Positions 1-62,246 are shown, counted from the stretch's first letter. The stretch is 64,000 nt of DNA from Planctomycetota bacterium (GCA_016712285.1 JADJRK010000001.1:2113098-2177097); one strand, 5' to 3'. The notes: generated by a model from the letters alone, not told the origin. A program made the numbers and translations.

Positions 1-102
1 GCCGCGCGACACCAGCACAAGTGCGCCGCGCAGTACCAGTGTAGTCAGCGGCTGCCATACCCGGTTGAGGGTCAGCACGCGCTCAAGCTCAATGCGGGTC
101 AT
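1..102 (-). CDS. hypothetical protein, N-terminal fragment (gene runs off the window start)
   Basis: ATG (revcomp cat at 100-102) preceded by strong RBS AAAGGAGACGCC. The ORF reads MTRIELERVLTLNRVWQPLTTLVLRGALVLVSRG... to the window edge. Confidence 0.4.
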   Translation of the reverse strand, partial: MTRIELERVLTLNRVWQPLTTLVLRGALVLVSRG

Positions 103-122
103 GGCGTCTCCTTTCTGGTGAG

Positions 123-195
123 TGGTGGCGGCGGAGGGAGTTGAACCCTCAAGCCCGGGATTATGAATCCCGGCTGCGCACCGGCGCGCGCCGCG
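123..195 (-). tRNA. tRNA-Met (anticodon CAT), initiator-like, atypical
   Basis: Minus-strand sense ends ...CGCCGCC-A-CCA; T-arm GAGGG-TTCAACT-CCCTC; anticodon arm CGGGA-TTCATAA-TCCCG with the GGG/CCC pairs typical of initiator tRNA; 1:72 mismatch; D-arm shortened. Confidence 0.55.
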
Positions 196-201
196 AAAAG
201 T

Positions 202-278
202 TGGTGTGCCCGGCAGGGCTTGAACCTGCACCTCGCGGGGTAAGAACCCGCTGCTCTGCCGCTCGAGCTCCAGGCACG
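202..278 (-). tRNA. tRNA-Lys (anticodon CTT)
   Basis: Acceptor GTGCCTG/CGGGCAC-A-CCA; D-arm GCTC..GAGC; anticodon arm GCGGG-TTCTTAC-CCCGC; T-arm CAGG-TTCAAGC-CCTG. Confidence 0.7.
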
Positions 279-284
279 TCGAAT

Positions 285-358
285 GGAGCCGCCGGCGGGA
301 GTTCAACCCGCACCGCGCCGCTACGAGGGGCGCATCCTGGCGTTAGACGACAGCGGCT
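285..358 (-). tRNA. tRNA-like gene, Glu-type scaffold with anticodon CGT (Thr?), atypical, possibly pseudo-tRNA
   Basis: Acceptor GCCGCTG/CGGCGGC-T-CCA; Glu-like D-arm TCGTCTAACGCCAGGAT; anticodon loop CTCGTAG with a C:C closing mismatch; T-loop TTGAACT (G at position 56). Confidence 0.4.
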
Positions 359-359
359 T

Positions 360-433
360 GGTTCCCGGTGGGTGAATCGAACACCCGTCGCTTGTTTGTA
401 AGACAAGGGTCCTGCCATTGGACGAACCGGGAG
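360..433 (-). tRNA. tRNA-Val (anticodon TAC)
   Basis: Acceptor TCCCGGT/ACCGGGA-A-CCA (U1:A72); D-arm GTCC-AATGGCA-GGAC; anticodon arm CTTGT-CTTACAA-ACAAG; T-arm GGGTG-TTCGATT-CACCC. Confidence 0.65.
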
Positions 434-438
434 AATGT

Positions 439-511
439 GGTCGCGGAGGTGGGATTCGAACCCACGGTCTCTTGCTCCCGGGGCAAGCGTCCGGCCTCTG
501 GACTACTCCGC
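439..511 (-). tRNA. tRNA-Pro (anticodon CGG), atypical C33
   Basis: Acceptor CGCGGAG/CTCCGCG-A-CCA (C1:G72 and A73 as in tRNA-Pro); D-arm GTCC-AGAGGCC-GGAC; anticodon arm CTTGC-CCCGGGA-GCAAG; T-arm GTGGG-TTCGAAT-CCCAC. Confidence 0.55.
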
Positions 512-514
512 GAA

Positions 515-561
515 AGCCCGCGCCGGACGGCGCGGGCGCCCGCTGCTTCCGCAGCGGGCTT
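515..561. other. pair of perfect GC-rich hairpins (9-bp stems, 4-nt loops) flanked by A/T runs; terminator-like or processing spacer inside the tRNA array
   Basis: GCCCGCGCC-GGAC-GGCGCGGGC directly followed by GCCCGCTGC-TTCC-GCAGCGGGC then TTT; AAA precedes it, so a TTT run follows on either strand. Confidence 0.5.
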
Positions 562-568
562 TCAGTGT

Positions 569-643
569 TGGTGAGCGTACGGGGAATCGAACCCCGACCT
601 TCTGATTGAGAATCAGAGATCCTGGCCGTTAGACGATACGCCC
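569..643 (-). tRNA. tRNA-Glu (anticodon CTC)
   Basis: Glu-type D-arm TCGTCTAACGGCCAGGATC (compare E. coli TCGTCTAGAGGCCCAGGAC); anticodon arm TCTGA-TTCTCAA-TCAGA; T-arm CGGGG-TTCGATT-CCCCG; ends ...TACGCTC-A-CCA. Confidence 0.75.
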
Positions 644-718
644 TGGCGACCCCACGGGGAGTTGAACCCCGATCTCCCGATAGACAATCGGGCATCGTAG
701 CCGTTGGACCATGGGGCC
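644..718 (-). tRNA. tRNA-Asp (anticodon GTC)
   Basis: Acceptor GGCCCCA/TGGGGTC-G-CCA (G73); anticodon arm CCCGA-TTGTCTA-TCGGG; T-arm CGGGG-TTCAACT-CCCCG; abuts the previous tRNA with 0-nt spacing. Confidence 0.8.
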
Positions 719-721
719 AAG

Positions 722-795
722 TGGTAGAGACACGTGGAGTCGAACCACGATCGGTCGATTATCAATCGACTGCTCTGCCATTGAGCTATGCCTCT
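722..795 (-). tRNA. tRNA-Ile (anticodon GAT)
   Basis: D-arm TAGCTCAATGGCAGAGC; anticodon arm GTCGA-TTGATAA-TCGAC; T-arm CGTGG-TTCGACT-CCACG; acceptor AGAGGCA/TGTCTCT-A-CCA (A1:U72). Confidence 0.7.
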
Positions 796-800
796 GAATC

Positions 801-874
801 TGGCTGGCTCGGGTGGACTCGAACCACCATCACAAGCTCCGCAAGCTTGCGTCCTTTCCTTTAGACGACGAGCC
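801..874 (-). tRNA. tRNA-Arg (anticodon GCG) on a Gln/Glu-like body, atypical
   Basis: Acceptor TGGCTCG/CGAGCCA-G-CCA (U1:A72, G73); D-arm GTCT-AAAGGAAA-GGAC; anticodon arm CAAGC-TTGCGGA-GCTTG; T-arm GGTGG-TTCGAGT-CCACC. Confidence 0.5.
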
Positions 875-882
875 ATGAGTGT

Positions 883-925
883 GGAGCCCGCCTTCGCCAA
901 GGCTTCGGCGGGCATGCCTGCGGGC
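883..925. repeat. REP-like palindromic repeat, copy 1
   Basis: GCCCGCCTTCGCCAAGGCTTCGGCGGGCATGCCTGCGGGCG; 7-bp outer stem GCCCGCC/GGCGGGC; core CTTCGCCAAGGCTT shared with copies at 1046, 1207 (inverted) and 1305. Confidence 0.6.
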
Positions 926-961
926 GTCAAATGCTGGACAGGCGCCCTCCGGGTGGAAGGC

Positions 962-1036
962 TGGTGGACCGGCTGGGAGTTCAACCCAGTCTGCGTGCTT
1001 GCAAGGCACGCGTGCTCGCGTTGACACTACCGGCCC
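962..1036 (-). tRNA. tRNA-Cys (anticodon GCA), atypical T-loop
   Basis: Acceptor GGGCCGG/CCGGTCC-A-CCA; anticodon arm CGTGC-CTTGCAA-GCACG; T-arm CTGGG-TTGAACT-CCCAG (G56 instead of C56). Confidence 0.6.
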
Positions 1037-1045
1037 ATAGTGTTG

Positions 1046-1088
1046 CGTCCGCCTTCGCCAAGGCTTTGGCGGACAGTGGCCGCGCCAT
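1046..1088. repeat. REP-like palindromic repeat, copy 2
   Basis: GTCCGCCTTCGCCAAGGCTTTGGCGGACAGTGGCCGCG. Confidence 0.6.
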
Positions 1089-1099
1089 TGCGCAGCAAC

Positions 1100-1174
1100 T
1101 GGAGCCCCCGGGCGGAATCGAACCGACCGTCCCCTGACTGGCAATCAGGAATTCTGCCACTGAACCACGAGGGC
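1100..1174 (-). tRNA. tRNA-Gly (anticodon GCC)
   Basis: Acceptor GCCCTCG/CGGGGGC-T-CCA (U73 as in tRNA-Gly); D-arm GGTTCAGTGGCAGAATTCC; anticodon arm CCTGA-TTGCCAG-TCAGG; T-arm CGG-TTCGATT-CCG. Confidence 0.8.
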
Positions 1175-1206
1175 TTTGTATTTCGGCGCAGTTGTCAAAG
1201 AACTGG

Positions 1207-1240
1207 CTTGCCAGCCGAAGCCTTGGCGAAGGCTGGTGTG
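1207..1240. repeat. REP-like palindromic repeat, copy 3 (inverted orientation), overlapping the 3' end of tRNA-Phe
   Basis: CCAGCCGAAGCCTTGGCGAAGGCTGG is the reverse complement of the CCAGCCTTCGCCAAGGCTTCGGCTGG core. Confidence 0.55.
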
Positions 1241-1307
1241 CCGGCGTGGACTTGAACCACGATTTCCGCGGCTTCAACGCGGCGCTCTACCGTTGAGCTA
1301 CCGGCAC
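1234..1307 (-). tRNA. tRNA-Phe (anticodon GAA)
   Basis: Acceptor GTGCCGG/CCGGCAC-A-CCA; D-arm TAGCTCAACGGTAGAGC; anticodon arm CCGCG-TTGAAGC-CGCGG; T-arm CGTGG-TTCAAGT-CCACG. Confidence 0.8.
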
Positions 1308-1350
1308 CCGCCTTCGCGAACGCTTTGGCAGACATGCCTGGGTGCGGGCG
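1305..1350. repeat. REP-like palindromic repeat, copy 4, overlapping the 3' end of tRNA-His
   Basis: CACCCGCCTTCGCGAACGCTTTGGCAGACATGCCTGGGTGCGGGCG; shares the CATGCCTG..GCGGGCG tail with copy 1. Confidence 0.55.
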
Positions 1351-1411
1351 CGGAGTCGAACCGCGCCTTCGCTTTCACAGAGCGACATGCATCCGCTACA
1401 CCAACCCGCAC
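1339..1411 (-). tRNA. tRNA-His (anticodon GTG) with encoded G-1
   Basis: Anticodon arm TCGCT-CTGTGAA-AGCGA; T-arm CGCGG-TTCGACT-CCGCG; 3' end ...CCCGCAC-CCA with an extra 5' G pairing the discriminator, as in bacterial tRNA-His. Confidence 0.7.
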
Positions 1412-1417
1412 ATAACG

Positions 1418-1450
1418 CAGCGGGGACCCGTCACCGGGTCCCCGCTTTCA
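1418..1450. other. GC-rich hairpin 6 bp upstream of the tRNA-His 5' end (TTT run on plus strand only)
   Basis: GCGGGGACCC-GTCACC-GGGTCCCCGC followed by TTTCAG on the plus strand. Confidence 0.45.
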
Positions 1451-1584
1451 GCGCATACGCGCCTTCAAAGCGTCGGACCCCCTGGGCCATGACCGCGCAG
1501 TGCCCGCTCACGGCGGGGCGCGAAATCTCGGATGGCGTTTGGCTGCGACACGATCATCTCCTTGGACGCGAGCTTACCGCACGT

Positions 1585-1622
1585 ATATTGACGTGTCAAT
1601 ACTTTTATTGACGCGTCAATAC
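1585..1622. promoter_or_regulatory. two 17-bp palindromic operator-like sites, 21 bp centre to centre
   Basis: TATTGACGTGTCAATAC and TATTGACGCGTCAATAC (TTGACGCGTCAA is a perfect palindrome), separated by TTT. Minus-strand reading contains TTGACA -35-like hexamers. Sits ~175 bp upstream of the tRNA array and ~40 bp downstream of the rtcA stop. Confidence 0.5.
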
Positions 1623-1658
1623 TGTAACGCCTGCCAGTTCCTGCGGGTTTCAACTATT

Positions 1659-2663
1659 TCATGGCGCAACGGTCACGCGCCATGCGCCATCGTGCTCAGC
1701 GATGTCAATCTCGACGTCCAGAAAGCGGCGGATCGTCTCGATGTTCGTCGTTGTGTGCAGCGTGGGCTTCAGCGTCGTGAAACTGCCGCCGGCGCCCAGC
1801 GCCATCGGCAGCAGCAACTGGTCAGCCAGGTGCTCACCCACCGGAGCCTCTGACTTCAGATAAGTCTTCATCTCGCGCACAGCCTCTTTGGCCACGGTCT
1901 CTGCGGCTTTGCCGCGCTTTCCGAAAGCGGTGACGACTTCCGTGATATGCTCGCCGCGCGCAAACACGCACACCGCGTTGCCGGGGCCCAAGCCGCGCGG
2001 GCGTTCCTGGCGCAGATCGCTTACATTCAACGCGCGCCCGATGATGCCGAGTTCGCGCTCGCCGACGTTTTCGGGCAGGTTGGCGACGTAGGCCACAGCC
2101 GCCAGCGCCACTACACCACGCTCGTGCAGCTTGAGCCGCTCGCGCACCGTCCACGGCTGGATCTGCGCGTGAATCTCCCCGCCACCGGCTGGGAAGAACC
2201 CCAGTCGCTCGGCCCGCAGTTCGACTTCAATGCCTGCACGCGCAACGACAGGCAGAAACGAGTGCAGCAGAAAATCCAGTGGCGGGGCCCAGGCGTTGTG
2301 CGTGCCGCCCTCGACGCTCACGTGGCTTTCGCTGTCAGCATGCAGCAGCGGGTACAGCACCGTTTGCAGCACCAGCGAAGCGCTGCCCGCCGAGCCAACA
2401 CTGAACCGGTACTTGCCCGGGTAGATGCCCTGCGGCGCAAATGCCAGGTCGCGGCTGCCGATCTCGTCGCCGGTGACGTCAGCGTTGCTGACCTGCTGCG
2501 CAGCACGCACACACGCCAGGTGCTGCTTGCCCAGCCCCGGCTTTTCGCGGCCGGCACGAATGTTGAACAGACGAAACGGCTGGCGCGTGACAATCGAAAG
2601 CGCGAGCGAGGTGCGAAGCACCTGCCCGCCGCCTTCGCCCGCGCTGCCGTCAATCTCGATCAT
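1659..2663 (-). CDS. rtcA: RNA 3'-terminal phosphate cyclase RtcA
   Basis: 334 aa; N-terminus MIEIDGSAGEGGGQVLRTSLALS is the RtcA family signature; start is 1 bp after the rtcB stop (operon). Confidence 0.9.
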   Translation of the reverse strand: MIEIDGSAGEGGGQVLRTSLALSIVTRQPFRLFNIRAGREKPGLGKQHLACVRAAQQVSNADVTGDEIGSRDLAFAPQGIYPGKYRFSVGSAGSASLVLQTVLYPLLHADSESHVSVEGGTHNAWAPPLDFLLHSFLPVVARAGIEVELRAERLGFFPAGGGEIHAQIQPWTVRERLKLHERGVVALAAVAYVANLPENVGERELGIIGRALNVSDLRQERPRGLGPGNAVCVFARGEHITEVVTAFGKRGKAAETVAKEAVREMKTYLKSEAPVGEHLADQLLLPMALGAGGSFTTLKPTLHTTTNIETIRRFLDVEIDIAEHDGAWRVTVAP

Positions 2664-2664
2664 G

Positions 2665-3888
2665 TCAACCCTTCACGCACACGACCTGCTTCAGTGTGTG
2701 CAGGATCTCGACCAGGTCGCTCTGGGCCTCCATCACCGCGTCGATGTCCTTGTACGCAGCCGGCGTTTCGTCGATCACGTCCTTATCTTTGCGGCACTCG
2801 ACGCCCGCCGTGGCAGCCTCGTGGTCTTTCACCGTGAACTTCTTGCGCGCCTCGTTGCGGCTCATGACGCGGCCCGCGCCGTGGCTGCACGAGTGGAAGC
2901 TCTCCTCGCAGCCCTTGCCGCACACGATGTAGCTGCGGGCACCCATGCTGCCGGGAATGATGCCGAGCTCGCCCTTGCGGGCTGACACGGCGCCTTTGCG
3001 CGTGACGAACACCTGCTCGCCGTAATGCTCTTCGCGCTGCACGTAGTTGTGGTGGCAGTTCACGGCCATCAGCTCGGCGTTGAATTCGGGCACCAGGCCC
3101 GTGATCGCAACGGCATTGATCACCGCGCGCATCATGCACTCGCGGTTGATACGTGCATACTCCTGCGCCCAATGCACGGCTTCGACGTAGTCGTCAAAGT
3201 GCTCGGTGCCTTCGTCAAGATATGCCAGGTTTTCATCGGGCAGGTTCTTCATGTGCTGGCGCATGTCGTTCTTCGCAAGCTGGATGAAGTAGGTCCCGAT
3301 GCGGTTGCCCACGCCGCGCGAGCCGCTGTGCAGCATGAACCACACGTGGCCTGCCTCGTCGAGGCAGACCTCGATGAAATGGTTGCCCGTGCCAAGCGTG
3401 CCAAGCTGGCCGGCGGGATGGGCGTTGCGCTCAAGCTTGGGGTACTTGTCGGTGATTGCCTTGTAGCCCGCTTCCAGGGCCTTGTACGCCGCCGCCACGT
3501 GCTCGGGCGGGTCGTTCCAGGCGCCGCGGTCGTTGCGGCCGCCACGGTCGGTGCGACCGTGCGGCACGGCGCGCTCAATCGCGCCGCGAATCGGCAGCAG
3601 GTTGTCGGGCAGGTGCTCGGCTTTCAACGAGGTCTTCACGGCGCACATGCCGCAGCCGATGTCCACACCCACGGCCGCGGGAATGATCGCGGCCTTGGTC
3701 GGCACAACGCTGCCGACGGTCGCGCCGAGGCCCCAGTGCACGTCGGGCATGGCGGCGACCCACTTGTGGATGATCGGCAGCTTGGCGGTGTTGATCAGCT
3801 GCTGCTCGGCGTTGGCGTCGAAGTGAACGCCCTCAATCCACGCCTTGATCGGCTTGGCACCCTTATGAGTAATCATCTTGTACGGCAT
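2665..3888 (-). CDS. rtcB: RNA-splicing ligase RtcB
   Basis: RtcB family throughout (MPYKMITHKGAKPIKAWIEGVHFD..., NHFIEV, HNY, C-terminal HSCSHGAGR). The ORF extends to 4293 but the true start is placed at MPYKM (3888), giving the canonical 408 aa, with GAGGAC upstream. Confidence 0.9.
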   Translation of the reverse strand: MPYKMITHKGAKPIKAWIEGVHFDANAEQQLINTAKLPIIHKWVAAMPDVHWGLGATVGSVVPTKAAIIPAAVGVDIGCGMCAVKTSLKAEHLPDNLLPIRGAIERAVPHGRTDRGGRNDRGAWNDPPEHVAAAYKALEAGYKAITDKYPKLERNAHPAGQLGTLGTGNHFIEVCLDEAGHVWFMLHSGSRGVGNRIGTYFIQLAKNDMRQHMKNLPDENLAYLDEGTEHFDDYVEAVHWAQEYARINRECMMRAVINAVAITGLVPEFNAELMAVNCHHNYVQREEHYGEQVFVTRKGAVSARKGELGIIPGSMGARSYIVCGKGCEESFHSCSHGAGRVMSRNEARKKFTVKDHEAATAGVECRKDKDVIDETPAAYKDIDAVMEAQSDLVEILHTLKQVVCVKG

Positions 3889-3938
3889 GGCGTCCTCGGT
3901 CAGTACTGTACCGGAACGCAGACGGGTTGCACGCTGGT

Positions 3939-4880
3939 TCAGGCCGCCAGCCCTTCCAGCAGCATGCGCCAGGACTGCTGCTCGCGGGCCGGGTCGATCA
4001 GCGGGCGTTTGGCTTCGCAGCGCTGTTGCAGCTCGTTGTAGAAATCTCTGTCTGACTCGGCGCGCTGCAGCAAGCGCGCCAACGCTTGCGTGTCCCCCAC
4101 CTCGAACAAGCCGGGATAATCCGCACCCATGATGCCGATCGATGCGCCCATGCGACTCAGGATCGCCGGCGTGCCGCAGGCAATTGCCTCGGTCAGCACG
4201 TTGGCGCCGCCTTCCATGACTGACGTCAGCACCATCAGGTGCGATGACGCGAGCACATGCAGCGTTTCTTCGCGCGTGACTTCGCCGCGCCACTCGTAGC
4301 GCGGGTTTGCGCGCACTTCTTGTTCGGCGCGCGAGCGCATCTCCGGGTCCAGCGCGCTGCCCAAATGCACGACGCGGACGCGCGAGTCCGGCGGCAAAAG
4401 GCGCAGCGCCTCTGCCGTGCGAAACGGGTCCTTTACTTCGCGCAGGTGCCCGATCACGCAGGCCCGGAAATGATCCGATGGCCGTGGCGGCGCGTCGACC
4501 GGGGCAACAGCCGACTGGTAAATCACATGGGCGCGCTCGCGGTACTCGGGCGCCAGCTGCGTCAGCGCGTGCGGCTGCAGCACGATAAAACGATCTGCAA
4601 GCCTGACCGACAACTGCGCTTCTTCGTCGACCTGCACGTCGCGATAGATGTCGGTGCCGGTGAGCGCAAGCACGACGGGACGGCCGGGAAACTCGGCTTT
4701 GAACTTCAGGATTTCAGGATGGCTGTGCTTGGCGTGCAGCGCGACGAGCACGTCGGCGCCGTGGTCCACGAGCGTGTGCCCGAGTTGCCCGAAGATGTCG
4801 GCCCAGCGATCGGCGGTGATGCCGTTACCGCGGCGCGTGTGGCTGAACGGCGTGTGCAATTGAATCTTCAAAGGGCGCAT
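3939..4880 (-). CDS. senB: GT-B family 4 glycosyltransferase, SenB-like (selenosugar synthase candidate)
   Basis: ~313 aa; GT4 motif EGGANVLTEAIACGTPAILS; size and position next to an EgtB/SenA-family gene match selenoneine SenB. Start chosen at MRPLKIQL just downstream of the neighbour's stop. Confidence 0.5.
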   Translation of the reverse strand: MRPLKIQLHTPFSHTRRGNGITADRWADIFGQLGHTLVDHGADVLVALHAKHSHPEILKFKAEFPGRPVVLALTGTDIYRDVQVDEEAQLSVRLADRFIVLQPHALTQLAPEYRERAHVIYQSAVAPVDAPPRPSDHFRACVIGHLREVKDPFRTAEALRLLPPDSRVRVVHLGSALDPEMRSRAEQEVRANPRYEWRGEVTREETLHVLASSHLMVLTSVMEGGANVLTEAIACGTPAILSRMGASIGIMGADYPGLFEVGDTQALARLLQRAESDRDFYNELQQRCEAKRPLIDPAREQQSWRMLLEGLAA

Positions 4881-6163
4881 GTACGGAACCCGGCAAGAAT
4901 GTCGTTGCGATGGGGCGTGTAGAAGTTGCGCCAGGTGTTGCGAATCAGGCGCGAGCGCGTGCAATACGTGCCGCCACGCAGCGCCTTGAAGCCGACGAAC
5001 CAGGGCTCGCTGTATTCGCTGTACATGTCAGCGACGAAACCCGGATAGCCCTTGAACTCGGTGTCTGTCCACTCCCACACGTTGCCCAGCATCTGGCGCA
5101 CACCGAACGCGCTGTCGCCTGCCGCGTGCGCACCGACATCCACTGTGCCCGGCACGCGGGTATCGAGGTTGCCGTGCTCGGGGCGCGGCGGTTCGTCGCC
5201 CCACGGGTAAAGCCGCTTGCGCGGGCCCAGGCCGCCCTTGCCGTTTGGTTCGCAGCTTGCGGCGCATTCCCATTCGGCTTCGGTGGGCAGCCGGCGGCCG
5301 GCCCAGCGGCACCAGGCCTGCGCTTCGTACCAGCTTACGTGAATCACGGCGCGGTGCGGCTCAAGCGGCACCCACTTGTCGAACTGCCGGCGTTGCCACG
5401 CGCCGCCCTGCTTGCGCCAATACACCGGGTGCGCGCGCCCGTGTGCGATGCGCCACGCCCAGCCCTGTTCTCCCCAGTGCCTTGGATCCTCATAGCCGCC
5501 GTCGTCGACGAACGCGGCGAACTGCGACTGGCTGACGGCTGCACGGGCGATCTTGAACGGTTGCACCGTCACCGGGTGGGCCCACTTTTCGTTGTCAAAG
5601 ACGAACACGGCGTCTTTGGATGCACCAAGCATGAACGTGCCGCCGGGGATTTCAGCGTCGCCATCGAGTGGACCGGCCTCGGGAAAAACAGGGACAGGCA
5701 CCGTTGGTGCCTGTCCCTGTTTTTCGAGCTTGGGCTCGGGGTAGCCGAGTGTCTGGCGGGTGTAAGTGAACGCCTCGCCGTGCATGTCTTCGTGGTAGAT
5801 GGCGTAGCGCGTGAGGTAGAAGTCTTCAGGCGACAAACCGTCGGCGACGCGGTCGTGGATGGCCTTGCAGTACGCCAGCGTGTCCTCAAAAGAGGGCAGC
5901 GGCAGGTTCCAGCGCGTGGTGTGGGCAATGCTGATCGAGTCAAACAGCGCGTCTTCGTCCGGGCGTGTCGGCGGCAAGCCGCGCCTCTCACGCAGCACCC
6001 ACCGCGAGTAGAAGTAACTGGCGTGGCCGATTTCCCAGCGCAGGGGGTTCACAGTGGGCAAGTACGGGCCCATGAGCTGTGCTGGCGAAAGGTCAGTCAC
6101 CAGCGCCCGGCAACGCTGATGGGAGTCGTACAGTGCAGCAATCAGTGTGTCCGCATCGTTCAT
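4868..6163 (-). CDS. senA: EgtB/SenA-family sulfoxide (selenoxide) synthase (DinB-like N-domain plus FGE-sulfatase domain)
   Basis: 431 aa. DinB_2-type N-terminus with two HxxxE metal-binding motifs (HASYFYSRW, HTTRW, HEDMHGE); FGE-sulfatase-like C-terminus (RRLPTEAEWECAA, RGGTYCTRSRLIRNTWRNFYTPHRNDILAGFRTC). EgtB vs SenA cannot be distinguished from sequence alone. Confidence 0.65.
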   Translation of the reverse strand: MNDADTLIAALYDSHQRCRALVTDLSPAQLMGPYLPTVNPLRWEIGHASYFYSRWVLRERRGLPPTRPDEDALFDSISIAHTTRWNLPLPSFEDTLAYCKAIHDRVADGLSPEDFYLTRYAIYHEDMHGEAFTYTRQTLGYPEPKLEKQGQAPTVPVPVFPEAGPLDGDAEIPGGTFMLGASKDAVFVFDNEKWAHPVTVQPFKIARAAVSQSQFAAFVDDGGYEDPRHWGEQGWAWRIAHGRAHPVYWRKQGGAWQRRQFDKWVPLEPHRAVIHVSWYEAQAWCRWAGRRLPTEAEWECAASCEPNGKGGLGPRKRLYPWGDEPPRPEHGNLDTRVPGTVDVGAHAAGDSAFGVRQMLGNVWEWTDTEFKGYPGFVADMYSEYSEPWFVGFKALRGGTYCTRSRLIRNTWRNFYTPHRNDILAGFRTCAL

Positions 6164-8664: not shown

Positions 8665-10152
8665 ATGCCGGACCTCCTGGTTGACATCGAAACCGCCCGC
8701 GACGGCACGCCGCTGTACCAGCGCATTGCCGACAGCATTCGCGCCGACGTGCTTGCGGGCCGCCTGCACCGCGGCGAGCGCGTACCCAGCACCCGCAGCC
8801 TTGCGCGCGAACTGAAGGTCAACCGCAACACCGTTGCCCAGGCCTACGATCAGCTGATTGCCGAGGGCTTTTTGGCTGGCAAACACGGCAGCGGCACATT
8901 CGTGGCCGATGAGCTGCCACAAGCCAACTTCAGTGTTCGCACCGCGCAAAAACAGCAACAGCCCCTGCGCCGCGTCGCGCTTGCCAACTCGCCCGCGCCG
9001 CCGCCGTTTTACCAGCGCGTGCTGGCGCCCGAGAACCCGCAGCCGCCGGCGCCGGGCTATCTGGACCTGCGACTTGGGGCGCCGGACATTGACGCCTTTC
9101 CGTTGCGGCAATGGCGGAGGGTCGTCGGCAACCAGCTGCTGGTGACGCGCCGCTACCGCATGAACTATGGCAGCGCATACGGCTTGCAGGAACTTCGCGA
9201 GGCCATTGCCGCATACCTGGGCCGCGCGCGCGGCATTGACTGCACGCACCGCAACGTGCTGATCACGTCCGGCAGCCAGCAGGGGTTGTGGCTGGCGACT
9301 TCGCTGCTGGTCGGCGCGGGCGACCAGGTGCTGATGGAAGACCCGGGCTATCTTGGCGCTGCCAGCATCTTTCGCGCGGTTCGCGCAGACTTGCGGCCGG
9401 TGCCCGTGGACAGCGAAGGCGCCCAACCGGCGGCCGTGGCGCGCATGCTTGAGAAGGGGGTGCGGCCCAAACTGTTGCATCTGACGCCCAGTCACCAGTA
9501 CCCGACGGGGGTGTCGCTTTCCGCGGGTCGGCGCATGGAAATGCTTGAGCTTGCGGCGCGTCACGGGTTCATGATTGTGGAAGACGACTACGACAGCGAG
9601 TTCCGGTACGAGGGCCGCCCCCTGCGAGCGCTGGCGGGCATCGACCAGTCGGGCGTGGTCATTTATGTGGGCAGCTTCAGCAAGGTGATGTACCCGAGCC
9701 TGCGGGTCGGGTTCGTGGTCGCGCCGGATTGGCTGATTGAGGCAATGGTCGGCTTGCGCTGGCACATTGACTTCATGCCGCCGATGCTGGAAAGCGCCGC
9801 GCTGGCACAATTCATCGCCGACGGCGACTTTGAACGTCACCTGCGACGCATGCGGTCGCAGTATGCCGACAAGCGCAAGGCGCTGGTCGATGTCTTGCAT
9901 GACAAGTTGCCGGGTGTCGCGCCTGCAACGCTGCCGCCGGGTGGCATGAAGCTGTTGCTCAATGTCCCGCCGAAACTGACGCGCGAGCAGGCGCGCGAAA
10001 GGGCCCACAAGGCAGGCGTGAGAGTCTATGACCAGAGCGCGTGCCACTTCGAGCCGGGCAAGGCGCCGAACGTGCTGACAATCGGCTTCACATCGCTGCC
10101 GCTGGCCCAGGTTGTGGAAGCCGGCGAGCGGCTGGCCGCTGCATGGACGTAA
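8665..10152 (+). CDS. MocR/GntR-family transcriptional regulator with PLP-dependent aminotransferase-like domain
   Basis: 495 aa; N-terminal winged HTH (LYQRIADSIRADVLAGRL...PSTRSLARELKVNRNTV); C-terminal fold-type I aminotransferase domain (SFSKVMYPSLRVGFVV). Confidence 0.85.
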   Translation: MPDLLVDIETARDGTPLYQRIADSIRADVLAGRLHRGERVPSTRSLARELKVNRNTVAQAYDQLIAEGFLAGKHGSGTFVADELPQANFSVRTAQKQQQPLRRVALANSPAPPPFYQRVLAPENPQPPAPGYLDLRLGAPDIDAFPLRQWRRVVGNQLLVTRRYRMNYGSAYGLQELREAIAAYLGRARGIDCTHRNVLITSGSQQGLWLATSLLVGAGDQVLMEDPGYLGAASIFRAVRADLRPVPVDSEGAQPAAVARMLEKGVRPKLLHLTPSHQYPTGVSLSAGRRMEMLELAARHGFMIVEDDYDSEFRYEGRPLRALAGIDQSGVVIYVGSFSKVMYPSLRVGFVVAPDWLIEAMVGLRWHIDFMPPMLESAALAQFIADGDFERHLRRMRSQYADKRKALVDVLHDKLPGVAPATLPPGGMKLLLNVPPKLTREQARERAHKAGVRVYDQSACHFEPGKAPNVLTIGFTSLPLAQVVEAGERLAAAWT

Positions 10153-21686: not shown

Positions 21687-21698
21687 TTGACGCGTCAA
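21687..21698. promoter_or_regulatory. third copy of the TTGACGCGTCAA palindrome
   Basis: Identical 12-bp palindrome to the site at 1609-1620. Confidence 0.3.
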
Positions 21699-61760: not shown

Positions 61761-62246
61761 ATGGCGCGGTCAAGCATTCGATCAGCCCCCTCAGGCGGCG
61801 CAGGCGCGCTGCTGGAGAAGCTTGAACGCTACCTTCAACGCAAGTCACAAAAGCTGACGTCCCAGCGCCGCTCGCTGGTGCAGAAAATCGTCGAGATGGC
61901 CAAGACGCACTTCACCGCCGACGACCTGGTCGCCGAGTTCTTCGACGCCCGGCCCCGCGTCAGCAAAGCCACCATCTACCGCTCGCTCAGCGTCATGGTC
62001 GAGGCGGGCATCCTTGAGGAACACCAGTTCGGCAACAGCTACAAGGTCTACGAGTTGTCCGAGGGCCGGCCCCACCACGACCACTTGATCTGCACCCACT
62101 GCGGCAAAATCCTCGAGTTCTTCAACGCCGAAATGGAAGAGCTTCAGGAAAAGGTCGCCAAGAAGCACGGCTTTCACGCCACCCACCACAGCCAGAAAAT
62201 CTTCGGCGTCTGCCAGCAGTGCTGGGCCCTGGGCGTGCGCGCTTAG
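61761..62246 (+). CDS. fur: Fur-family transcriptional regulator
   Basis: LTSQRRSLVQKIVE...KATIYRSLSVMVEAGIL; HHDHLICTHCGKI; C..C metal sites. Confidence 0.8.
   Translation: MARSSIRSAPSGGAGALLEKLERYLQRKSQKLTSQRRSLVQKIVEMAKTHFTADDLVAEFFDARPRVSKATIYRSLSVMVEAGILEEHQFGNSYKVYELSEGRPHHDHLICTHCGKILEFFNAEMEELQEKVAKKHGFHATHHSQKIFGVCQQCWALGVRA

Follow-up and report, generated by a model that had tools for sequence, protein, structure and literature searches.

Twin palindromes as candidate operators upstream of a long tRNA gene array in a planctomycete lineage, with a possible leader attenuator

Two 16-bp palindromes located between rtcA and a long tRNA gene array in an uncultured planctomycete lineage are interpreted here as operators. 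The protein bound to them would be dimeric and sequence-specific, most likely a repressor, and would act on a sigma-70-type promoter of the array. This interpretation was derived from sequence comparisons and is given a probability of roughly 0.6. Between the predicted promoter and the first tRNA gene, a short leader reading frame is followed by a terminator-like hairpin, an arrangement suggestive of a candidate ribosome-sensing attenuator, which would constitute a second checkpoint. The combined proposal of a stacked control that reads the state of translation, with a repressor at the twin operators and a leader-peptide attenuator admitting RNA polymerase to the array when ribosomes fail to finish the frame, is tentative. 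As a further layer, the operator protein may be a genome-wide binder of exact TTGACNNGTCAA palindromes.

The window, by which the whole analyzed stretch of 64,000 nucleotides is meant, stems from a Planctomycetota relative and was compared with 11 other loci recovered via RtcA and HNH protein searches. The linked HNH proteins of these 12 genomes are 64-91% identical, and individual loci are designated by L numbers where they have to be told apart. In the order in which they follow each other on the array strand, the features considered are:

2665 to ~3888, minus strand: rtcB (Pfam RtcB, 4e-130), its start placed according to the 407-aa orthologue in L001
1659-2663, minus strand: rtcA (Pfam RTC, 4.7e-76)
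1605-1621, minus strand: predicted distal operator, with core TTGACGCGTCAA at 1608-1619 and perfect 16-bp palindrome TATTGACGCGTCAATA
1585-1601, minus strand: predicted proximal operator, with core at 1588-1599 that reads TTGACACGTCAA on the array strand and left half TTGACA running from 1599 to 1594
1571-1576, minus strand: predicted -10 hexamer TAAGCT, read from the sequence 17 nt downstream of TTGACA
1465-1551, minus strand: predicted leader reading frame of 28 codons, with AAGGAG as Shine-Dalgarno sequence 6 nt before the GTG at 1551 and a TGA stop at 1465-1467
1471-1482, minus strand: candidate antiterminator strand GGGGGTCCGACG within the 3' end of the leader frame, able to pair with the 5' arm of the terminator
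1420-1445, minus strand: GC-rich hairpin GCGGGGACCCGGTGACGGGTCCCCGC, candidate terminator/attenuator stem, 8 nt before tRNA-His
123-1411, minus strand: tRNA array of 13 genes (ARAGORN, Rfam)
1-102, minus strand: beginning (ATG at 102-100) of an HNH_5 endonuclease gene that follows the last tRNA gene at a distance of 21 nt and is cut by the window edge

The gene order on the minus strand is thus glycosyltransferase, rtcB, rtcA, twin sites, a leader of about 150 nt, tRNA array, and HNH gene. The 13 tRNA genes are packed into 1.29 kb of one strand in the order His, Phe, Gly, Ala, Arg, Ile, Asp, Glu, Pro, Val, Thr, Lys, and Met, and tRNA-His (1340-1411, ARAGORN) is the first to be transcribed. Relatives keep the same tRNA gene order, and the array comprises 10-15 tRNAs in most of them, 8 in L117, and 5 in L123. 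The array is putatively supernumerary. At the array position of L123 (7540-9917), where 5 tRNAs were called, a 507-aa reading frame is annotated over the remainder; this array may have decayed or been remodelled, and L123 retains the twin operators and the attenuator despite the reduction. The array tRNAs may be atypical. For the last gene, called as tRNA-Met(CAT) by ARAGORN, no tRNA model matched in Rfam searches, all matches (Tymovirus tRNA-like element, tRNA-Sec) being below threshold, and the array tRNA-Thr(CGT) is weak (37 bits) and absent from the gathering-threshold list. These two genes are located at 123-195 and 284-357 of the window, and a second tRNA-Thr(CGT) is present outside the array in L001, L002, and L123.

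Elsewhere the window has the content of an ordinary chromosome, including genes for RNase E, RNase HII, ThiG, L28, and thymidylate kinase, with uniform GC content throughout. When positions 1-4300 were compared by BLAST with phage and plasmid sequences, no phage match and only distant rtcB matches were obtained, which indicates that the region is chromosomal. An exact-protein lookup with RtcA from the window returned no record, and its nearest relatives belong to Planctomycetota metagenome-assembled genomes (94%, 89%, and 76% identity). Within 2665-4964 of the window, about 50 bp separate rtcBA from the preceding glycosyltransferase gene, which has the same orientation. In assembly GCA_019636195.1, which contains both L003 and L116, rtcBA and the array with its HNH gene are found on separate contigs, whereas they adjoin each other in 10 of the remaining 11 genomes. 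As ADH, VWA, response regulator, and kinase genes still follow the L116 array, the link to rtcBA was made or broken by rearrangement.

An HNH gene follows the array in every genome recovered, and the full-length L001 orthologue of the gene at the window edge matches HNH_5/HNH. Homologues are embedded in the tRNA arrays of many metagenome contigs, with up to 41 tRNAs. On contig L125 (1-6636), an HNH homologue of 58% identity precedes 8 tRNAs, a gene for tmRNA, and another gene encoding an Acb2/Tad1-hairpin domain (anti-defence sponge family), and this contig looks like a phage-borne form of the HNH-plus-tRNA module. The sequence upstream of the L125 module is absent from the contig, no array accompanies a more distant HNH homologue from Lignipirellula (45% identity), and upstream twin palindromes of a comparable kind were not found at the other L-arrays L092 and L101-L103.

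Reading of the sequence gives TATTGACGTGTCAATAC at 1585-1601 and TATTGACGCGTCAATAC at 1605-1621. Each of these 17-mers contains a 16-bp palindrome, which is perfect at 1605-1621 and broken at the central GT only at 1585-1601, and the two 17-mers are also direct repeats of each other, identical at 16 of 17 positions. The original prediction had placed two palindromic sites here, about 175 bp upstream of tRNA-His and with centres 21 bp apart. The sites themselves are confirmed, as 16-bp palindromes inside the 17-mers, and so is their position, the end of the proximal site being 174 bp from tRNA-His. The spacing has to be corrected: with cores starting at 1588 and 1608, the centres are 20 bp apart in the window, as in 9 of the 12 genomes, and 21 bp applies to the remaining 3. 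A search with TTGACGYGTCAA, allowing up to one mismatch, yielded 6 strand-matches when 0.69 were expected, and none of 100 shuffles equalled this number. Next to the distal operator, on its upstream side (1623-1652, minus strand), TGAAAC and, after a gap of about 18-20 nt, GTTACA/GTTTCA form an inverted pair. This pair is seen again in most of the 12 genomes and could serve as an extra binding site or mark where the upstream transcript ends.

Two TTGACNNGTCAA cores are present upstream of tRNA-His in all 12 genomes. From their alignment it is evident that TTGAC..GTCAA is unaltered in all 24 cores (20 of 20 core positions constant), and that nearly every position varies in the 8-9 nt between the sites, in the 11 nt after the proximal site, and in the upstream flank. 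At the flanking positions, A is found without exception at +2 and T usually at -2, so that the conserved unit is the 16-bp T.TTGAC..GTCAA.A. The distal core reads TTGACGCGTCAA in 9 of 12 genomes, and the proximal -35 position is TTGACA in 10 of 12. Position 6 is mostly G in the distal and mostly A in the proximal site, a difference which is consistent among genomes and would fit roles at the DNA level, with TTGACA as a -35 element, rather than pairing in RNA. The twin sites follow the array and not rtcA, as they accompany the array in L070 and L116, which have a gene other than rtcA upstream, and are absent beside rtcA in L003, which belongs to the same genome as L116 and has no array at that place.

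Around the proximal site the sequence has the geometry of a promoter. At a distance equivalent to that of TAAGCT in the window, a TAnnnn hexamer is present in 11 of 12 genomes (variants TAAGCT, TATGCT, TATCTG, TATTCC, TATGCA, TAGACT, TATGTA, and TATCTA, usually with GG just before), and L121 has TTACTT at this position; the spacer is 17 nt, and 18 nt in L123. A strict consensus promoter scan called no promoter here because the -10 hexamer matches TATAAT at 3 of 6 positions only. Planctomycete promoters are poorly characterized in general. After the distal TTGACG no -10 hexamer occurs at 16-18 nt. The sequence TGGCAG-N-TACA, which precedes the distal site, was considered as a sigma-54 element and rejected, as it is not conserved in the relatives.

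Relative to the predicted transcription start, the proximal operator would extend from about -37 to -21 and the distal one would be centred at about -49.5. Because the -35 hexamer lies inside the proximal operator, a dimer bound there would occlude RNA polymerase, and a second dimer could bind, perhaps cooperatively, to the distal operator, which is two helical turns upstream and on about the same face of the DNA. An activator function for the distal site is possible. That transcription of the array is regulated through these operators, as had been proposed originally, is supported by the invariance of 24 out of 24 cores, the fixed -35/-10 register, and the divergence of the surroundings, from which we infer protein binding at the array promoter; the sign of the regulation and the start site are likewise predicted.

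The predicted leader frame, which together with the terminator was not part of the original prediction, has an additional in-frame ATG at 1557, and its peptide would read (MI)VSQPNAIRDFAPRRERALRGHGPGGPTL. Frames of 27-35 codons preceded by a Shine-Dalgarno sequence are present in 12 of 12 genomes, and their stop codons are located 15-19 nt before the hairpin (19 nt in the window). The peptides are rich in Arg and end in G-P-(T/P), no codon run is common to the genomes, and no match was obtained when the peptides were compared with Pfam. In the window, L001, and L002, which are the three closest genomes, every substitution within the frame alters the amino acid, and in a first view the frame was therefore taken as non-coding. 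This view was revised when the frame proved to be retained in 12 of 12 genomes, with its distance to the hairpin fixed. In a comparison with Rfam only tRNAs reached the gathering score, and a sub-threshold match of the leader to CC2171 (23.7 bits as compared with 75) was dismissed.

The stem of the terminator comprises 11 bp and is 98.5% paired over the alignment, with 3 compensatory pairs. In every genome the hairpin comes to an end about 8 nt ahead of the tRNA gene. Ten of the 12 genomes have a U-rich tail behind it, the exceptions being the window and L119, whose tails are weak. Duplexes between the antiterminator strand and the terminator arm are predicted for 12 of 12 genomes, with energies of -14 to -22 kcal/mol. 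Their core helix is 90-100% paired, one of its pairs being GC in 9 genomes, AU in 2, and GU in 1, and the observed covariation score, which is due to 2 compensatory sequences, was reached by 1 of 500 shuffles. The final codons of the frame, GGN-GTC-CNN-CGC (G/S-P), would provide the antiterminator bases and at the same time encode the conserved Gly/Ser-Pro. Under the proposed logic, a ribosome reaching the leader stop codon would cover the antiterminator strand, the terminator would form, and the array would be off, and a ribosome stalled earlier would leave the antiterminator strand free and permit read-through into the array. Both the translation of the frame and this attenuation logic are predicted. 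A covariance model of the attenuator detected only the 12 known copies, in addition to weak terminator-like matches after a neighbouring gene, and thus gives no evidence of an attenuator regulon. The weak matches (20-25 bits; L120 14915-14993, L118 15009-15075, and L123 13765-13844) are situated at the end of a large DUF1573/HYDIN-like gene downstream of the array and are probably similar terminator hairpins.

Exact copies of the motif also occur singly, away from the array:

21687-21698 of the window, no strand assigned: solo 12-bp core TTGACGCGTCAA, intergenic, just after a terminator-like hairpin and with no -10 hexamer at promoter distance on either strand
Solo copies in all: window 21687; L002 19782; L003 11539 and 18251; L070 1753, 5205, and 6192; L116 17312; L119 6072; L123 2973

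These 10 exact solo copies of TTGACNNGTCAA were obtained with the twin sites masked from 274 kb of lineage DNA, a sample that represents one chromosomal neighbourhood across lineage genomes. The number expected was 0.25-0.42 with Markov orders 2-5 and 0.3 in simulations, which corresponds to an enrichment of about 30-fold, and with the same masking the motif ranks second among all 1024 palindromes of the 5-N2-5 type. Variants with one mismatch are not enriched (6 as compared with 10.5 expected), and 1.47 Mb of unrelated loci contained 1 copy only. Eight of the 10 solo copies are inside unrelated genes at non-orthologous positions, 7 of these 8 in the frame xTT-GAC-NNG-TCA-A, and the two that are intergenic (window 21687 and L002 19782) are situated behind terminators, without promoter geometry. 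The third core copy at 21687, to which attention had been drawn originally, is therefore real as an exact copy but is one of the lineage-wide solo copies. As it lacks promoter geometry and the solo set is mostly genic, it is not evidence for a promoter regulon, and the lineage-wide occurrence of solo copies means that the motif is not specific for the array.

A dedicated local repressor does not account for this excess of exact copies, and the binding protein may have sites throughout the genome. In the strongest form of this idea, the palindromes would be recognized by a genome-wide DNA-binding protein of a nucleoid-associated, SlmA/Noc-like, or silencing type with hundreds of exact sites per chromosome, and control of the array would be a side function of the double site. 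The enrichment of exact copies only, the presence of eight of them in unrelated genes, all at different loci, and the scarcity of copies in unrelated DNA speak for this. Nevertheless we consider it unlikely, since the sample covers about 270 kb from one neighbourhood, since the solo copies are devoid of the T..A extension of the twin sites, and since they are not conserved between orthologous genes, the copy in a histidine kinase gene being present in L116 only. We know of no cognate protein for such a role. In any case, a genome-wide binder would be compatible with, and not opposed to, repression of the array.

It is quite improbable that the two sites are promoter architecture only, that is, a -35 element accompanied, on its upstream side, by a duplicate or UP-like module, conserved through contacts with RNA polymerase and without a dedicated regulator. 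The consensus TTGACA of the proximal site at the right distance from the -10 hexamer and the AT-rich spacer between the sites, which resembles UP elements, would be accounted for; however, the right halves GTCAA and the entire distal site are invariant although they lie outside any -35/-10 pair, the distal TTGACG has no -10 hexamer at the proper distance, and contacts of RNA polymerase do not require dyad symmetry. Slightly less credible again is a role in RNA, in which a read-through transcript from rtcBA would fold both sites into a long hairpin that terminates, stabilizes, or marks a processing site where the rtcBA message ends. The predicted fold of the 51-nt region, in which the two sites pair with each other, has an energy of -20 kcal/mol (z = -4.8), the L118 and L122 orthologues fold alike, and a promoter/terminator scan flagged a terminator-like site, although on the plus strand only. 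On the array strand the hairpin is followed by UAUACGUGCGG and not by a U-tract, the sequence is invariant and does not covary, the inter-site G/A mismatch itself being conserved, and the sites persist in L070 and L116 without rtcA upstream. The possibility that the HNH endonuclease recognizes or cuts the sites, or that these are recombination ends, their purpose being mobility of the array instead of its transcription, is the least probable of all. It would leave the exact -35/-10 register unexplained, a genome enriched in the target of its own nuclease would risk self-cutting, and the stable downstream synteny (ADH, VWA, response regulator, histidine kinase) gives no obvious indication of a mobile array. 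In its favour are the constant presence of the HNH gene after the array, the widespread embedding of its homologues in tRNA arrays, the fact that the conserved block starts at the twin sites, and the homing-type spread of L-arrays proposed in PMC8421152.

With regard to the preferred reading, that the twin palindromes are operators of a dimeric repressor, no TetR_N or other helix-turn-helix gene was found beside the array in the window or among the called genes of L116-L123 (8 loci). Three other candidates were rejected: a MocR/GntR fusion (8665-10152), a Fur-family gene (61761-62246), and the OmpR-type response regulator and kinase downstream of the array neither fit a 16-bp palindrome nor are specifically linked to it. 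On viral contig L115 (IMGVR_UViG_3300037961_002543), the single contig returned when viral contigs were scanned for the twin pattern, seven palindrome copies, one of them imperfect, are arranged at intervals of about 13 bp (9053-9230) and are followed by three direct repeats (iterons) of GGAGACATATCCATCT. This cluster resembles an origin of replication or a partition site, and PHROGs annotation of the genes near it was uninformative, revealing no known function.

Spare tRNA arrays are widespread, and their control has been worked out in one cyanobacterium only. The locus described here would be a second, unrelated operator solution in another phylum, again together with rtcBA RNA repair and an HNH gene, which argues that a conditional "emergency tRNA supply" is general and not a cyanobacterial oddity. 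The leader frame and terminator offer a testable route by which stalling of ribosomes would switch on tRNA genes, with cleavage of tRNAs by anticodon nucleases, antibiotics, and starvation as possible triggers. No earlier case of a tRNA operon under ribosome-mediated attenuation was found in our literature searches and, if the proposal is correct, this would be the first as far as these searches show. In addition, the invariant palindrome is a ready bait for isolating the regulator from an uncultured lineage, and its genome-wide excess may point to a larger DNA-binding system.

The arrangement of the leader is comparable to that of the leader-peptide attenuators of trp, his, and pheST and of the antibiotic-sensing bmrCD and topAI (PMC4191407, PMC12121999), which combine a short translated frame, a terminator just downstream, and alternative pairing at the end of the frame; in the planctomycete leader the translation and the pairing are predicted. 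It differs from these in that tRNAs and not protein-coding genes would be regulated, and in that no single-codon run is evident. With the rtcBA-RtcR system of E. coli and Salmonella the locus shares rtcB and rtcA and the link to tRNA damage and supply, but no RtcR or sigma-54 activator gene is present in the window, and the palindromes are located after rtcA and not before rtcB.

The palindromic 12-bp sites of SlmA, which belongs to the TetR family, are dispersed. The sites of SlmA and Noc are exact palindromes of 12-16 bp scattered over the chromosome and mostly inside genes, as are the solo copies here, but they are not promoter operators. A close match for the operator sequence itself is the box ATTGACG-CGTCAAT, which is the DNase-footprinted operator of BetI1, a TetR-family repressor from Ruegeria pomeroyi (PMC12442346). 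This box is identical to ATTGACGCGTCAAT, the inner 14 bp of the distal site, and overlaps a -35 box, as does the proximal site here. In the E. coli betI-betT region a looser and different version, ATTGGACGTTCAAT, is found. BetI controls choline/betaine genes and is encoded beside its targets (PMC12442346), whereas betI, TetR_N, and bet genes are all absent near the array. The likeness therefore suggests, by analogy, a type of fold and not BetI orthology, namely a dimeric helix-turn-helix repressor able to read exactly this palindrome; to this extent the original suggestion of a TetR/Xre-type regulator finds support in the footprinted box, and no gene for it came to light.

The closest functional analogue is the trn array of Anabaena sp. 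PCC 7120 with its regulator TrcR. L-arrays in the sense of Santamaria-Gomez 2021 are long tRNA gene arrays that have spread horizontally, come in addition to a housekeeping tRNA set, and are silent by default and induced by translational stress. In the reports on cyanobacterial L-arrays, a neighbourhood of tRNA array, HNH gene, and rtcB is described (PMC8421152), and the array is silenced by TrcR bound over its promoter and co-regulated with rtcB and the HNH gene (PMC8421152, PMC10272220). The planctomycete array, in which at least 10 tRNA genes are closely packed on a single strand without periodicity and which is linked to HNH and rtcB/rtcA genes, shares these structural features of an L-array. 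Both arrays are long, the planctomycete one being putatively supernumerary like that of Anabaena, and both have repeated protein-binding sites, predicted ones in the present case, within the region of a sigma-70-type promoter contacted by RNA polymerase, implying by analogy silencing with conditional induction. The operators themselves are of different kinds. According to PMC10272220, TrcR belongs to the ribbon-helix-helix proteins and recognizes direct repeats of 8-9 nt resembling TGTAGTAT over the -10 hexamer and the start site, whereas the planctomycete sites are 16-bp palindromes over the -35 hexamer and upstream of it. The published 20/21-mer signature of TrcR gave zero matches in 12 of 12 promoter regions, and TGTAGTAT with up to one mismatch gave one match only in the 12 regions, on the opposite strand of L118. 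No leader frame or terminator is described for trn in the accessible portions of PMC8421152 and PMC10272220. Compared with the repressor-silenced L-array of Anabaena as described there, the planctomycete locus would be new in its type of operator, in its phylum, in having a candidate attenuator, and in the excess of exact palindromes throughout the lineage.
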